DNA of 64,000 nucleotides from Candidatus Aenigmatarchaeota archaeon (GTDB taxonomy: Archaea > Aenigmatarchaeota > Aenigmatarchaeia > PWEA01): contig JBKHHD010000001.1 of the NCBI GenBank assembly GCA_046539325.1, positions 55,437-119,436 on the forward strand. The letters are read 5' to 3'. Below are positions 1,367 through 51,202 of this stretch, one piece after another (within the stretch, counting starts at the first letter, position 1; each line of letters begins with the position of its first letter). A program made the translations under genes and the position numbers. Under the pieces are notes generated by a model. That model worked only from the letters and a program-made list of their open reading frames with translations. It did not search any database and was not told the DNA's origin.

Positions 1367-1693
1367 ATGCCGGAGTGTAACACGTGTGGAAAAATTTTTG
1401 ATTCAGAAAGAGGGCTTCACATACACCAATCCCGAGTCCACGCAAGTAAATCCGAAGGAACAGATCAAACCAAATCAACCAAGTTCCTCGAGGTAAAATC
1501 AATAAGACCCTGGATAGTTGCTGCAGTAATAATAATTCTAGGCTTAGGCCTGATAATCGCCACAGATGAGGTTGAAACTGAACGAAAAGAGGACGGTTTG
1601 GAGGAAAGCTTCAGCAGGGATTTGAAGCTTGTGGTGGAGGAAAATGAAACAGAAGACAAAGCAAAGGAAGTTGATGACTATGCCGAGGGATGA
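1367..1693 (+). CDS. C2H2 zinc-finger protein with one transmembrane helix
   Basis: CNTCGKIFDSERGLHIHQSRVH, then WIVAAVIIILGLGLIIA and an acidic tail. Confidence 0.65.
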   Translation: MPECNTCGKIFDSERGLHIHQSRVHASKSEGTDQTKSTKFLEVKSIRPWIVAAVIIILGLGLIIATDEVETERKEDGLEESFSRDLKLVVEENETEDKAKEVDDYAEG

Positions 1694-35149: not shown

Positions 35150-35584
35150 ATGAAGGTAGAAATAAAGGAAAGGAAAAAGAACCCTGTGCTAGACAGAAGA
35201 TTGATAGAAGGAACTGTAGAACACGCAGGTGAAGCTACTCCTTCCTCTGAAGCTCTAAAAGGATTCCTTGCAGAGGAACTAGACTCAGAAGAGGAAAGCA
35301 TCGAAATTAAAAAGATATTTACAATAAGAGGAATGCAAAAAAGCAAGTTCTGGGCAAGAGAACATGGAGATATTGAAGCTTCCGAAGAAGCAGAGAAAGG
35401 AGAAAAGAAGGAAGAATCCGGAGGCAAAAACTACGAAGAAGTATTAGGCGGAAGTATCTCAGATGCAAAAGATGAGATAGAGGAAATGGACGATCCAGAC
35501 TACGAGAAGTTGATGGAAGTTGAAAAGAACAATAAGGACAGAAAAGGTATGAAGAAATATCTGGAGAAGAACATAGGTGAATAA
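35150..35584 (+). CDS. rps24e: Ribosomal protein S24e with extra C-terminal domain
   Basis: [13 protein letters not shown] core; between spt4 and S27ae; extra YEEVLGGSI...NKDRKGM domain. Confidence 0.9.
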
Positions 35585-35814: not shown

Positions 35815-37773
35815 CTAGACCAAAAGAGGCACGAATATAAGAGCTGTCATTGCAACCAGCTTTATGAGGACATTCAGAGAGGGGCCTGAAGTATCTTTCA
35901 TTGGATCACCGATAGTATCCCCTACAACTGCTGCAGAGTGGGCATCAGAACCCTTACCCCCGTAGTTACCGTTTTCTATATGTTTCTTAGCGTTGTCCCA
36001 AGCTCCGCCTGCATTGGCCATTGTTACAGCAAGGAGGAATCCCGTTGAAATATTCCCAGCAAGCATTCCTGCGAGGGCCTCAGGACCCAGAAGAAGTCCA
36101 ACAACTATAGGCGAAAGTATAGCTATTACTCCAGGAAGAACCATCTCCTTGAGGGCTGAATCCGTTGAAATAGCTATACATGACGAGTAGTCAGGCTTCT
36201 CATCACCTGAAAGAATATTCATATCTTCGAACTGCCTTCTTATCTCATCTATCATCTTGCTTGCGCTTTTGCCCACTGATCTCATCGTAAGAGCTGAGAA
36301 AATAAAGGGTAGTAGAGCGCCAATGAACAGACCACCAACTATCATAGGCTGAGTAAGTGCTACGTCGGCTGCCTTCAGACCAACGTTCTGCGTGTAGGTA
36401 ACGAAAAGCGTAAGTGAAGCAAGGGCTGCGGAGCCTATGGCAAATCCCTTACCTATTGCTGCTGTGGTGTTACCTATCGAATCAAGAGCTTCGGCCCTCT
36501 CCCTCACGTCCTGGCCCATCTCTGCCATCTCAGCTATTCCAGCAGCGTTGTCAGCTACAGGTCCGTAACAGTCCGTTGCAAGCGTTATGCCTAGCGTTGA
36601 TAACATTCCTATAGACGCTATACCGATACCGTAGAGTCCTGCGAAATAATATGAAATTAACATGGCAGCAGATACCGTAAGCATAGGAACAAGGGTTGAA
36701 ATCATTCCTGTGGAAAAGCCAGCTATTATGTTTGTAGCGGCGCCACCTATCGATTCCTTTGCAATATTTCTCGTTGGTTTGTGTTTGCTGGCGGTGTAGT
36801 ACTCAGTCATAAGGCCTATAATTACACCGGCCAGAAGCCCTGAAACTATAGAGTAAAATACGCCAATCACTATTTCAGGGAAGAGATGCTGCATCCCGAA
36901 ATACATGAAGACAGGGGCAAGAATGGCTGCTCCGAAGGTTCCTCTGTTCAGGGCCCAGTGTAGGTTCTCCTCTCCACCAACGAAGAAGTATCCAATCATG
37001 GATGCTATTATTCCAGCTGCGCCTATGAAAAGGGGAAATACTACAGCGCCTGCAGCCTCCATGGTTATAGCTCCTATCGCCATCGTGGCCACGATCGCCT
37101 CGACGTATGACTCGAAAAGGTCCGCGCCCATTGCCGCTACGTCACCTACGTTGTCCCCGACGTTGTCCGCGACTACGCCCGGATTCCTTGGATCGTCCTC
37201 AGGGATATCCTCCTCCACCTTTCCCACAAGATCCGCTCCCATATCCGCAGTTTTCGTGTAAATTCCACCTCCGACGCGCGCGAACAGCGCTACTGAAGAA
37301 GCTCCGAATGCAAAGCCGAAAAGTATCTCGGGGTCAGGAAAGACGTAGTAGAAAACTGCTATACCCAAAAGACCGAAGCCTACGACAGACATTCCCATAA
37401 CGGTTCCTGAGGAAAAAGCAATTCCCAATCCTTTCCCGAGGCTATCCTTCACTGCTTCTGATGTCCTGGAGTTGGAGCTTGTGGCTGTAGACATTCCTAT
37501 AACTCCTGCAAGCGAGCTGAGGAAAGCTCCGAAGACGAAGGTAAGGGCAGTCTGTGGGTTTATAAAGTAGAAAAGGACAGAAGCTATCACAACAACAACC
37601 ACGGACAGGTACTTGAACTCCTGTGTAAGAAACGTCCTCGCTCCTTCCTTTATGTGATCCGACATCTCCCTTGCCTTTTCAGGTCCCCGGTCCTTCTTCT
37701 TTATCCTCCAGGTCAAAATTACTGCGAAAATTAATGCTATGATAGAAGCAGTTACTGCTATCGTTACGTGCAT
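35815..37773 (-). CDS. hppA: Membrane ion-translocating pyrophosphatase, K+-dependent type
   Basis: GGGIYTKTADMGADLVGKVE, DNVGDNVGD, GNTTAA, GGAWDNAKK, GDPMKDTSGP; start at ATG 37773. Confidence 0.95.
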   Translation of the reverse strand: MHVTIAVTASIIALIFAVILTWRIKKKDRGPEKAREMSDHIKEGARTFLTQEFKYLSVVVVVIASVLFYFINPQTALTFVFGAFLSSLAGVIGMSTATSSNSRTSEAVKDSLGKGLGIAFSSGTVMGMSVVGFGLLGIAVFYYVFPDPEILFGFAFGASSVALFARVGGGIYTKTADMGADLVGKVEEDIPEDDPRNPGVVADNVGDNVGDVAAMGADLFESYVEAIVATMAIGAITMEAAGAVVFPLFIGAAGIIASMIGYFFVGGEENLHWALNRGTFGAAILAPVFMYFGMQHLFPEIVIGVFYSIVSGLLAGVIIGLMTEYYTASKHKPTRNIAKESIGGAATNIIAGFSTGMISTLVPMLTVSAAMLISYYFAGLYGIGIASIGMLSTLGITLATDCYGPVADNAAGIAEMAEMGQDVRERAEALDSIGNTTAAIGKGFAIGSAALASLTLFVTYTQNVGLKAADVALTQPMIVGGLFIGALLPFIFSALTMRSVGKSASKMIDEIRRQFEDMNILSGDEKPDYSSCIAISTDSALKEMVLPGVIAILSPIVVGLLLGPEALAGMLAGNISTGFLLAVTMANAGGAWDNAKKHIENGNYGGKGSDAHSAAVVGDTIGDPMKDTSGPSLNVLIKLVAMTALIFVPLLV

Positions 37774-37856
37774 AACCTGAACTAGTTTTCCGTTGTTTTT
37801 AAAATTTCTAACGAAACCACAAAGATATTTAAATTTTAGTATTAAATAGTAACAAT

Positions 37857-38765
37857 ATGTCAGAAAATGAACAACCTGAGGCTTCAAAGGAGGTATACGA
37901 AAAACTCCCCTGGGACAAAATAATGAGTGAAAGAAATGAAAATGAAGAAGGTCTGGAATCATTAGCACAAGGCTCATATAAATGGGATCAGGAAGTAGAC
38001 AAACTTGCTTCAGAAAAGAAACCGGACAATGGTGATTATGAGGCACAGAATGGAACATCTTCTTCAACTGATTCAACTGAACAAAAGACTGTCGAAGTAA
38101 TATATTCATTGCAGCCTGAGATAAAGGACACAGCAGATAAACTTGGTTTAAAATACAACAACGAGATGGACCTATTCTTGAGATGGGGCGAAAAAAGCTA
38201 CGATGGGCAACTTTTAAGAAATGTTGCAAAAAAGGTCTACGGAAAAGAAAGGGGGGCATACAACTCATGGGACGAGATGGATAAAGCCGAAAAACATTCA
38301 GAGGTTATATCCCTGGGATTTAAGATGACAGATCCCGAATTTGAAGAAATTGCGGAATGTAGCAGTCTTACCGAAGCCTCAGAATTAATAGCCGAAGAAA
38401 TCGAAAACAAGTACGAGGACAGTTACACGTCACAAACCATACAGAAAATACTCAGAGAAGAAGCGCCAGAAATACACAGAGATCTAATGGATCCTTCCTT
38501 CAAGAGGAAAATAAAAAATAAGGTAGACAAAGAGTTTTTGAAGGCCGTGGACCCGGCCACAAAATCACTGGAACCTCTTGTTAGAGAGAGTGAAGAACAA
38601 TTTGCAGGAAGGTCCTATAACATGAATACAACCGAGGCCAGAAGCCGAAAGAAAGAAAGAAAGGAGATAGAAGAAGAAAACAAAGTACCAATTAACAAAG
38701 AAGTAGCTGCAACTGCTGCTAAAACAGAAGATGGATCAGAATACCTGGAAAGTATTAGTTCTTGA
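37857..38765 (+). CDS. Hypothetical acidic protein
   Basis: 302-aa ORF divergent from hppA with TATA-like sequence upstream; no motif recognised. Confidence 0.7.
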   Translation: MSENEQPEASKEVYEKLPWDKIMSERNENEEGLESLAQGSYKWDQEVDKLASEKKPDNGDYEAQNGTSSSTDSTEQKTVEVIYSLQPEIKDTADKLGLKYNNEMDLFLRWGEKSYDGQLLRNVAKKVYGKERGAYNSWDEMDKAEKHSEVISLGFKMTDPEFEEIAECSSLTEASELIAEEIENKYEDSYTSQTIQKILREEAPEIHRDLMDPSFKRKIKNKVDKEFLKAVDPATKSLEPLVRESEEQFAGRSYNMNTTEARSRKKERKEIEEENKVPINKEVAATAAKTEDGSEYLESISS

Positions 38766-49719: not shown

Positions 49720-50391
49720 TTATTCGGAGCTCCTTATTAAAGCTTGCTCTACTCTGCCCAGTTCCGGTCCTGTGGTATCCTCACTGACCAGAACACCATT
49801 GGAGCTAGCAACTACGCCTGCTCCGACAAATGGAACTCCAAAGCCCACGGTACCTATACCACACTCTAAACCAAAGACCTCTTCCAAAAACTCGATCTCC
49901 TCCTCCGAAGCGTCTCTGTGGCATAGAAGGCCCTTGTTTGTAACTACCGAGCTGCTTCCAAGGAGGTCCTTGCCTGCTATCTTCCCTGTCTTCACAGGAA
50001 CCTGAAAAAGCTCTTCAATCTCCCCTTTCACGTCGCTGAGCCTTTCAGAAACAACACATGCTTTATCGTTTACCATAATAAGGTTTCCAAGGGCTGTAGC
50101 GTTAACCTTCAAAACCTTCCACTCAATCCCTGCCTCTTCAAAGGCCTTCTTTTCCCTTTCCTCAACGTTCCTTGGGAGAACCACGCCCTTTGAGTTAGCA
50201 GAACAAAAGATACCAGGCATGGTTGAGCCAGCCACAGGCGTCTTGATGATTTCAACTCCCAGAACCTCTTCAACTGCTTCGTAACATCTTTCTGAAAGAC
50301 CTGGGTTCATTATACAGAAGTCTTCCGAGGTCTCTGCATGTAGCCCTATATTTGAGTCTCCGTCGAAGTTTATCCTCTTTATATTGGTCAT
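49720..50391 (-). CDS. eif6: Translation initiation factor 6
   Basis: NIG, GNLI.VND, GTV.FG, TTGPEL. Confidence 0.94.
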   Translation of the reverse strand: MTNIKRINFDGDSNIGLHAETSEDFCIMNPGLSERCYEAVEEVLGVEIIKTPVAGSTMPGIFCSANSKGVVLPRNVEEREKKAFEEAGIEWKVLKVNATALGNLIMVNDKACVVSERLSDVKGEIEELFQVPVKTGKIAGKDLLGSSSVVTNKGLLCHRDASEEEIEFLEEVFGLECGIGTVGFGVPFVGAGVVASSNGVLVSEDTTGPELGRVEQALIRSSE

Positions 50392-50405: not shown

Positions 50406-51041
50406 TCAGTCCATCTGGCTTTCAATAAACTCCTTCATGCCCTTCCTATTCTTGTTCTCTTCTTCCAACTCCAGAAGGAGTTCGAAGTCCGGATTTTCCA
50501 GATCATCTATAGATTCCTTCGCTTCGCCTATAGTTCCACCTAAAATATCCTCATACCTTTCCTTCTCCTGCTCGTCTACTTTCTCATGTAACTGTGATTG
50601 ATGGATTGAAAGACCTCTCTTTGTCTCAAACTCCCTTCCGCATTCATCACAGATGTACAGTTCCTCTTCTTCCTCTTCCTCTTCCTCTACTTCTTCCTCT
50701 TCTTCTTCATGCGCACGTGAGCGGTGCACTTCAAGTCCTTGTTCCGTGGAGAAGGTCTTACCACACTCTTCACATTCAAACTCTTCCTCTAAAGGAAGTT
50801 CCTTTTCGGGTGGCTGGACTAAGACGTACTCACCAGCATCTACGAGCCTTATTCTTATGGAGGAAGGTGGCTTCTGGGCTCCTCTTTTCCATATTCTATC
50901 ATTAAGGTCCTGATCGAGCTTGATATCTTTATCCGTCTGCTTCATAGCAAATTTCTTAATCTCACGCACAGCCCTTGCTGCGCGGTTTCTTCTCTCCACT
51001 TTCTTCACATCTAACGGAACGGAAAAGACGTTCTCTTCCAT
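50406..51041 (-). CDS. rpl31e: Ribosomal protein L31e fused to two C2H2 zinc fingers and a C-terminal domain
   Basis: VPL...RAARAVREIKKF...LNDRIWKRG..KPP.SIR core; between L39e and eIF6. Confidence 0.9.
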   Translation of the reverse strand: MEENVFSVPLDVKKVERRNRAARAVREIKKFAMKQTDKDIKLDQDLNDRIWKRGAQKPPSSIRIRLVDAGEYVLVQPPEKELPLEEEFECEECGKTFSTEQGLEVHRSRAHEEEEEEVEEEEEEEEELYICDECGREFETKRGLSIHQSQLHEKVDEQEKERYEDILGGTIGEAKESIDDLENPDFELLLELEEENKNRKGMKEFIESQMD

Positions 51042-51046
51042 AGAAA

Positions 51047-51202
51047 TCAGTCTCTCCAATGTTTGTCCTTGTTCACTCTAATCCTTCTCGTTCTGCTCCT
51101 TTTCATTCCGTACTTCTTTATGGATGCCCATACAGGAGCATCAGAGAGGTTGTCCTTCTTGATTAGCTTCCTCTTTTTCCCTTTCGTTTTTCTCGAAGAC
51201 AT
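51047..51202 (-). CDS. rpl39e: Ribosomal protein L39e
   Basis: Below track cutoff. MSSRKTKGKKRKLIKK...APVW..IK...HWRD; expected position before L31e. Confidence 0.88.
   Translation of the reverse strand: MSSRKTKGKKRKLIKKDNLSDAPVWASIKKYGMKRSRTRRIRVNKDKHWRD

Follow-up and report, generated by a model that had tools for sequence, protein, structure and literature searches.

Prokaryotic ribosomal proteins are among the most architecturally conservative proteins, and C2H2 zinc fingers are rare in archaea. What, then, would an archaeal ribosomal protein do with two of them? The question is raised by a gene at positions 50406..51041 (minus strand, stop codon included) of a 64,000-nucleotide stretch of Candidatus Aenigmatarchaeota DNA, which we analysed as a whole and call the window (contig JBKHHD010000001.1, assembly GCA_046539325.1). 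In one frame of 211 codons plus stop, starting with ATG, the gene encodes ribosomal protein eL31 with a C-terminus that, according to family matches and structural models, is lengthened by about 130 residues: a first zinc finger, a poly-Glu spacer, a second finger and a helical domain of 47 amino acids (aa) that we call the tail. Comparisons across genomes indicate that finger and tail are mobile: in the Aenigmatarchaeota lineage and in Nanohaloarchaea they have been grafted onto various proteins, either alone or together as a cassette. We lean slightly towards the view that the modules on eL31 form a putative adaptor on a leash, with a ligand that all of their carriers share.

The eL31 gene and its extension

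By family matches and copy number, 50406..51041 is the genuine and sole eL31 gene of a DPANN archaeon with an acidic proteome (D+E 17.5 % versus K+R 12.6 % over 375 long frames), whose relatives are labelled Candidatus Aenigmatarchaeota. The core comprises residues 1-80 (50802..51041, minus strand), where Pfam Ribosomal_L31e (PF01198) matches residues 11-66 with an E value of 9.3e-15 and 55 bits against a cut-off of 25. The same family has exactly one match in this genome (G000; 715 kb in 10 contigs, 91 % complete), making eL31 a single-copy gene. The NCBIfam L31e equivalog (NF002258) is matched over model positions 1-73 of 83, and its score of 66.8 bits falls just below the cut-off of 68 because the final ~10 positions of the model give way to the extension. 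Among solved structures, archaeal eL31 chains (89-95 aa) align with residues 2-69 (E 2.5e-11 to 1.3e-4). An alternative TTG start six codons upstream of the ATG would give a protein of 217 aa; the MEENVF-like start common to all 13 eL31 homologues in the alignment matches the ATG.

Behind the core, Pfam zf-C2H2 (PF00096) marks two stretches with an E value of 3.8e-11 and 43.2 bits against a cut-off of 25.2. Finger 1, the best of the two, spans residues 88-111 (FECEECGKTFSTEQGLEVHRSRAH; 50709..50780, minus strand) and finger 2 spans residues 129-152 (YICDECGREFETKRGLSIHQSQLH; 50586..50657, minus strand). They are separated by the poly-Glu spacer of residues 112-127 (EEEEEEVEEEEEEEEE; 50661..50708, minus strand), which has a net charge of −15. 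An eL31 with two C2H2 fingers and a poly-Glu spacer in a single 211-aa frame is what the sequence-only reading had claimed, and it holds in full, with the Pfam scores above their cut-offs and the strings that it quoted exact to the letter. Both fingers space their ligands as C-x2-C-x12-H-x4-H. All 14 homologues have the zinc ligands of finger 1 (C90, C93, H106 and H111) unchanged, and 13 of them also keep those of finger 2, the exception (P0014) having lost finger 2 altogether. The finger 2 motif TKRGLSIH.SQ.H is nearly invariant, and the spacer varies across the 14 homologues in both length and sequence.

The tail occupies residues 163-211 (47-49 aa; 50409..50555, minus strand) and is joined to finger 2 by a connecting helix, residues 153-162 (50556..50585, minus strand), which AlphaFold2 (AF2) places at 155-167 in the full model and at 5-15 in a model of the tail only. 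The tail-only model, built from 25 sequences, is a compact bundle of four short helices with a predicted local distance difference test score (pLDDT) of 91.8 and a predicted template modelling score (pTM) of 0.74. For the full-length protein (14-sequence alignment) the mean pLDDT is 76 and the pTM 0.38, with the eL31 core, each finger and the tail predicted as separate confident units. The fingers adopt the beta-beta-alpha fold, finger 1 as a strand pair and a helix at 100-110, and the poly-Glu stretch is disordered, with pLDDT < 50 at residues 113-126. These separate units, the disorder between them and the variable spacer length support the earlier suggestion of a tethered module.

Neither Pfam nor NCBIfam gave a match to the tail, with E values of up to 10 allowed. 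When 25 tails were scanned against Pfam, no family, including SAP, HeH and HTH, was matched by more than one member. The tail profile found nothing better than E 0.28 among PDB sequences, Foldseek returned 0 PDB matches at E <= 1e-3 with the tail model, and ESM Atlas gave no usable match with the tail region. The tail thus appears, on the strength of its model, to be a small and confidently folding domain family that is absent from Pfam and NCBIfam and apparently undescribed. It is without metal ligands and holds a conserved basic turn, NK-RKG, in which K35 is conserved in at least 90 % of sequences and R37 is invariant. In the 14-sequence alignment, tail and finger 2 are better conserved than the edges of the eL31 core; beyond the zinc ligands, the many invariant positions include G102, L103, T140, L144 and the block P184-D185...K197-R199-K200-G201. 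The net charge is +6 for the core, about −33 for the extension, −11 for the tail and −4 for finger 1.

This DNA comes from a metagenome assembly, and the gene could in principle be an artefact in which a chimeric assembly, a missed stop or a frameshift joins eL31 to an unrelated finger gene. The sequence-only reading had proposed an architecture search for L31e plus zf-C2H2 and a look at the reads across the fusion, and both came out on the side of a real gene. Among 5.8 billion proteins we found 13 other clusters with L31e and C2H2 in the same single-frame architecture, at 43-88 % identity, from several sources and on contigs of up to 134 kb; the three named ones are Candidatus Aenigmatarchaeota. 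Public annotation calls these proteins either 'C2H2-type zinc finger protein' or '50S ribosomal protein L31e'. The eL31 with two fingers and tail is present in 10 genomes of three genera, namely this genome and seven others from its genus, one from a second genus of the family, and G254 from another family (G000 and G254-G262), which as kin are not independent of one another, and also in 8 named loci of relatives. With a single-sequence query, the tail matched in 18 of 371 genomes of the phylum, including all 8 others of the window's family. In two DNA runs the whole 1101-nt stretch lies in single 27.6-kb contigs that bridge the gene with 0 differences at a depth of 64-73; these runs are possibly the source of this DNA and hence not independent support. 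The sequencing runs listed for the stretch include no RNA run. An artefact is therefore excluded by the independent conservation, with zinc ligands kept down to 43 % identity, and not by the reads, and we consider it extremely improbable.

One detail of the runs bears on the assembly. Thirty-six nucleotides (50751..50786, part of finger 1) match other metagenome contigs of the same runs with 3 differences, one contig being 51 nt long at a depth of 307-357 and another 11.7 kb long. Such repeats could in principle mislead an assembler; lying on other contigs, they mean that the coding of the finger recurs at the DNA level in further genes or organisms of the community.

How the extension arose can be followed among relatives. 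The 22 genomes of the order yielded 19 eL31 frames, every one of them long (143-264 aa stop to stop). In two sister families eL31 carries a Lys/Glu-rich, low-complexity C-terminal extension of ~60-130 residues with neither finger nor tail (L036-L044), and in G242 and G043 it carries a linker and a tail without fingers. The C-terminus of eL31 seems to be a growth hotspot in this order, and the series points to a likely order of events in which a disordered extension came first, followed by capture of the tail and then by insertion of the fingers.

Recurrence of finger and tail on other proteins

We built a profile from 15 tails and searched it over 1.84 billion cluster representatives, which yielded 309 representatives at E <= 1e-3, of which 107 reach E <= 1e-10. 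Carrier families were assigned by Pfam for the best 149 of the 309. Among these are the ribosomal proteins S24e (12), L31e (10), S3 (2), uL24 (2), L22 (uL22, 1, P0024) and L32e (eL32, 1, with the tail N-terminal). Single carriers are RNA polymerase A'', KaiC, MoxR, a tyrosine integrase, Gins51, OapC, ParA, CheW, HSBP1, a C2H2 protein, a Zn-ribbon/bPH protein and a HEPN/FG-GAP protein, and 109 carriers have no family. In the same 149, our own hidden Markov model (HMM) places the tail at the C-terminus in 77, at the N-terminus in 61 and internally in 10, with 2-4 copies in 21 proteins. Of the 61 proteins with an N-terminal tail, 43 have one hydrophobic segment after an acidic linker and are ~190-270 aa long. 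The grafted termini thus include those of eL31, uL24, uL22, eL32, eS24, uS3, RNA polymerase A'' and others, together with the N-termini of one single-pass membrane-protein family. From these assignments the modules recur on solvent-side ribosomal proteins of both subunits and on proteins that handle DNA or RNA.

Named tail carriers come from Aenigmatarchaeota, Nanohaloarchaea (complete genomes included), Nanoanaerosalina, Altiarchaeales, Iainarchaeum and 'Nanoarchaeota'. The complete genome of Nanosalina sp. VS9-1 encodes a uL24-tail fusion and a protein with tail and transmembrane (TM) segment (L071 and L063), and that of strain M3_22, also a complete Nanohaloarchaeal genome, encodes a tail-TM protein (L081). 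The genome searches covered 393 genomes, and a scan of the collection for tail carriers used one peptide pattern. Some carriers have several tails: the multi-tail proteins P0020, P0026 and P0166 are a KaiC-type ATPase in which five tail stretches accompany an N-terminal finger, RNA polymerase A'' with two tails, and a protein of 1381 aa with seven matched stretches.

Within this genome, a second copy of the tail ends the eS24 gene of the window (35150..35584, plus strand; Pfam S24e at residues 4-71, E 3e-9). That copy (35432..35572) was found by tblastn with an E value of 5.9e-18 and by the tail HMM with 6.6e-26, and sits behind a short acidic or Lys-rich linker; the earlier mention of a 'shared tail domain' is borne out by it. 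On contig C2, uS3 (L031:3009-3854) has an acidic linker and a divergent tail (HMM E 1.8e-7), and uL24 (L031:5369-5893) ends, behind an acidic linker, in a single C2H2 finger and lacks a tail; both lie in the main ribosomal-protein operon.

The finger is similarly distributed. A search of 8528 six-frame open reading frames (ORFs) of at least 40 aa in this genome for C-x2-C-x12-H-x3-5-H gave only 11 matches, 9 of which share by eye the signature CxxCG..F....GL..H. Fingers of the type C.ECGK.F....GL..H.SQ.H occur on six proteins besides eL31 and uL24: three with the finger followed by a hydrophobic segment, one with the finger after two such segments, one winged helix-turn-helix (wHTH) protein and one nucleotidyltransferase. 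A small finger protein with a hydrophobic segment lies in the window at 1367..1693 (plus strand; tblastn with the eL31 finger region, E 5.4e-8); its N-terminal finger scores below the cut-off of Pfam zf-C2H2 (E 0.0025) and its hydrophobic window is at residue 40. Further predicted membrane finger proteins are found on contigs C3 and C9 (L032:1-1125 and L032:2381-2947, both minus strand, and L035, with its finger after the two segments). One predicted membrane finger protein has weak, below-cut-off Pfam matches of thioredoxin/DsbA type (E 2e-4 to 7e-4). The 117-aa wHTH protein and the 461-aa NTP_transf_2 nucleotidyltransferase (L033 and L034, contigs C3 and C7) each end in a finger.

Comparison of these proteins with their homologues shows that a finger in one can occupy the equivalent place of a tail in the other. 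A 189-aa finger+TM protein of this genome and the tail+TM protein P0040 are homologues beyond the module itself (E 2e-9). The wHTH+finger protein of this genome likewise matches P0018 of Nanohalobium, which has four tails, in the N-terminal part of the latter (E 8e-12). On uL24 the module is a finger in this genome and a tail in five loci of Nanohaloarchaea. Since the replacement occurs at the same position of orthologous proteins, the modules would most simply serve the same purpose. The two also occur together, on eS24 (P0015, P0016), uS3 (L015, L017), the membrane protein P0140 and the wHTH protein P0137. In P0015 and P0016 one C2H2 finger of the finger 2 type precedes the tail, with 58 % and 49 % identity to finger 2 plus tail of eL31; because the same pair follows eS24, finger 2 and tail look like a cassette. 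The domain of the 189-aa protein past its membrane segment is homologous to the Nanohaloarchaeal tail+TM proteins and looks PepSY-like by eye.

This distribution bears directly on where the modules act. The sequence-only reading had placed the eL31 extension at work at the tunnel exit, and one can picture a built-in exit factor that acts on nascent chains or in the maturation of the 50S subunit. Of the four large-subunit proteins with a module, three (eL31, uL24 and uL22) are exit-rim proteins, and a module is found at the exit in both sister phyla (on eL31 and uL24 in Aenigmatarchaeota, on uL24 in Nanohaloarchaea). Finger 1 also scores on the double-stranded RNA-type model zf-C2H2_jaz, with 29.7 bits against a cut-off of 22.6. 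As for eL31 itself, the review PMC9932298 places RAC next to Rpl31 at the tunnel exit, with reference to Peisker 2008, which upholds the location that had been claimed. Action at that site is possible for the eL31 copy and gains some support from the modules on uL24 and uL22, but the modules are not specific to the exit. The tail is also on eS24 and uS3, small-subunit proteins of the same genome, and elsewhere on eL32, RNA polymerase, replication proteins and the 43 membrane proteins, and neither Pfam nor NCBIfam finds a chaperone, J-domain, NAC or Rei1-like family within eL31. A dedicated exit factor is on balance quite unlikely.

Putative function of the modules

In the adaptor that we favour, the cassette would be held off the ribosome surface and would putatively capture the ligand common to all carriers. 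This ligand may be nucleic acid or protein, in the latter case a hub or the modules themselves. Ribosomes would thereby belong to one physical network with module-bearing membrane proteins and DNA-side proteins. The eL31 copy of the adaptor would hang beside the tunnel exit without its function being specific to the exit.

Several observations weigh against such an adaptor. The net charge of the tail ranges from −13 to +8 across lineages, so there is no conserved electrostatic signature for a class of ligand. In a structural comparison by VIA-align, the 26 chains with Z >= 5 are generic helical arrangements without exception, and the best Z score, 6.0, lies in the noise expected of helical models. 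The carriers are so diverse, with CheW, MoxR and HEPN-containing proteins among them, that a single shared ligand may not exist. Furthermore, the TM segments were called from a crude hydropathy window, and the protein starts at the loci were taken from stop-to-stop frames.

It is conceivable, albeit doubtful, that finger and tail are the two halves, or interchangeable plugs, of a lineage-specific docking system in ultra-small, halophilic DPANN cells, binding each other or one hub and wiring the two ribosomal subunits, RNA polymerase, replication and partition proteins and a single-pass membrane-protein family into one scaffold. If this were true, ribosomes would be moored to the membrane or the nucleoid via ribosomal proteins, independently of the signal recognition particle, and the eL31 cassette would be the mooring point on the exit side.

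Alternatively the modules may be non-specific binders of nucleic acid that tether their carriers to RNA or DNA. Ribosomal proteins would gain extra contacts with ribosomal or messenger RNA, and RNA polymerase, GINS, OapC, ParA, the integrase and the membrane proteins would gain contacts with the nucleoid. Nucleic acid is the classical ligand of C2H2 fingers, the closest solved matches to the present ones are the DNA-binding arrays Aart (2i13, E 5.7e-14) and PRDM9 (5v3g, E 3.2e-12), most of the named non-ribosomal carriers act on DNA or RNA, the tail has its basic NK-RKG turn, and interchange of finger and tail fits a shared class of ligand. Nevertheless, the negative charges of tail, finger 1 and poly-Glu linker are poorly suited to binding a polyanion, and the variable charge of the tail speaks against this explanation too. 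The helix residues of finger 1 at the usual base-contact positions, as read from the sequence, are S, E, Q and E. In the tail there is no SAP, HeH or HTH similarity, each weak Pfam match being confined to one of the 25 tails. We regard general nucleic-acid binding as unlikely.

The extension may also be a passive appendage: a bristle for solubility or halo-adaptation, a store of zinc on an abundant protein, or an extension trimmed after translation, which would leave the core alone in mature ribosomes. The proteome is acidic, the low-complexity K/E extensions in related families indicate that this terminus tolerates neutral growth, and zinc-binding ribosomal-protein paralogues serve as zinc reserves in bacteria. 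A passive role is very unlikely, however, given that tail and finger 2 are conserved above the core edges with many invariant positions that are not ligands, that the tail lacks metal ligands, and that it turns up as a separate unit in at least 309 clusters, indicating selection on a folded binding surface.

Lineage-specific extensions of ribosomal proteins are known as such; what appears to be new is the undescribed domain family that this one carries. Our literature searches returned no paper linking L31e with a zinc finger in archaea and none on C2H2 zinc fingers in Nanohaloarchaea, and for ribosomal-protein C-terminal extensions in Aenigmarchaeota none was relevant by title or abstract. 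In the parts available to us, 10.64898/2026.06.17.729505 concerns other ribosomal-protein insertions and PMC6393860 makes no mention of eL31 modules. In this one clade, at least four ribosomal proteins, drawn from the small and the large subunit, have acquired folded accessory modules that are tethered by flexible leashes. Since RNA polymerase, replication proteins and a family of membrane proteins bear the same modules in two sister DPANN phyla, the modules probably mark out a network of interactions that has gone unrecognised in these minimal cells. The uL24-tail and tail-TM proteins of complete Nanohaloarchaeal genomes make the question testable where such strains grow.

The genes around eL31 form a co-directional row of Rpr2, S19e, dsDNA_bind, a 51-aa basic ORF, eL31, eIF6 and a 301-aa ORF. 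The upstream 51-aa ORF (51047..51202, minus strand; from the ORF list) has no Pfam match at E 0.01 and lies at the position of eL39; we read it as eL39 from its size, basic composition and position. The downstream neighbour is eIF6 (49720..50391, minus strand; Pfam eIF-6, E 4.3e-56). Fusion of eL31 with a downstream gene was considered as the source of the extension and rejected, eIF6 being that gene and the sister families showing a low-complexity extension first. The 301-aa ORF that ends the row resembles FtsY by eye. Elsewhere in the window, an 817-aa ORF (35815..38268, minus strand) resembles a membrane pyrophosphatase by eye; its first ~150 residues are odd, probably reflecting a listed start that is too early.

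Comparison with known systems

According to the review PMC9932298, eL31 is normally a single-domain protein without extensions and without ribosomal-protein partners. With canonical archaeal eL31 (4v6u_Ba, 6skf_Bc, 1s72_X) the present protein shares its core by sequence, its gene neighbourhood and its single copy, and differs by the ~130 added residues with their three folded modules.

Analogous to the present fingers, eukaryotic C2H2 factors and chaperones such as Rei1/Reh1/ZNF622 and Zuotin-RAC are found at the exit of the 60S subunit, where they likewise place C2H2 fingers in the region beside eL31. Those are free factors acting in trans, whereas the present fingers are covalently part of eL31; the only homology found is that of a generic finger, and the present modules are also found far from the exit. 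The fingers share with the classical C2H2 arrays Aart (2i13) and PRDM9 (5v3g) the consensus F/Y-x-C-x2-C-x3-F-x5-L-x2-H-x4-H. The arrays join their fingers by a TGEKP linker, in place of which the present fingers are split by the 16-residue poly-Glu spacer, and for this reason they cannot wrap DNA as a tandem array. Compared with the arrays, finger 1 is also acidic or neutral at the usual base-contact positions.

The eukaryotic ubiquitin fusions of eL40 and eS31 likewise combine a ribosomal protein with a small non-ribosomal domain. In those fusions ubiquitin is N-terminal and is cleaved off, whereas the present modules are C-terminal, on long linkers, with nothing indicating cleavage. In the archaeal and eukaryotic proteins of the P-stalk, a flexible acidic linker ends in a conserved C-terminal element that recruits factors. 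The present proteins follow the logic of that design, in which an anchor in the ribosome bears, on an acidic and flexible linker, a small conserved element at the end, with several copies per ribosome; in sequence they are unrelated to the stalk proteins. Their terminal element, unlike that of the stalk, is a folded 47-aa helical domain with zinc fingers, and while there is a single stalk, the present modules are scattered over both subunits.

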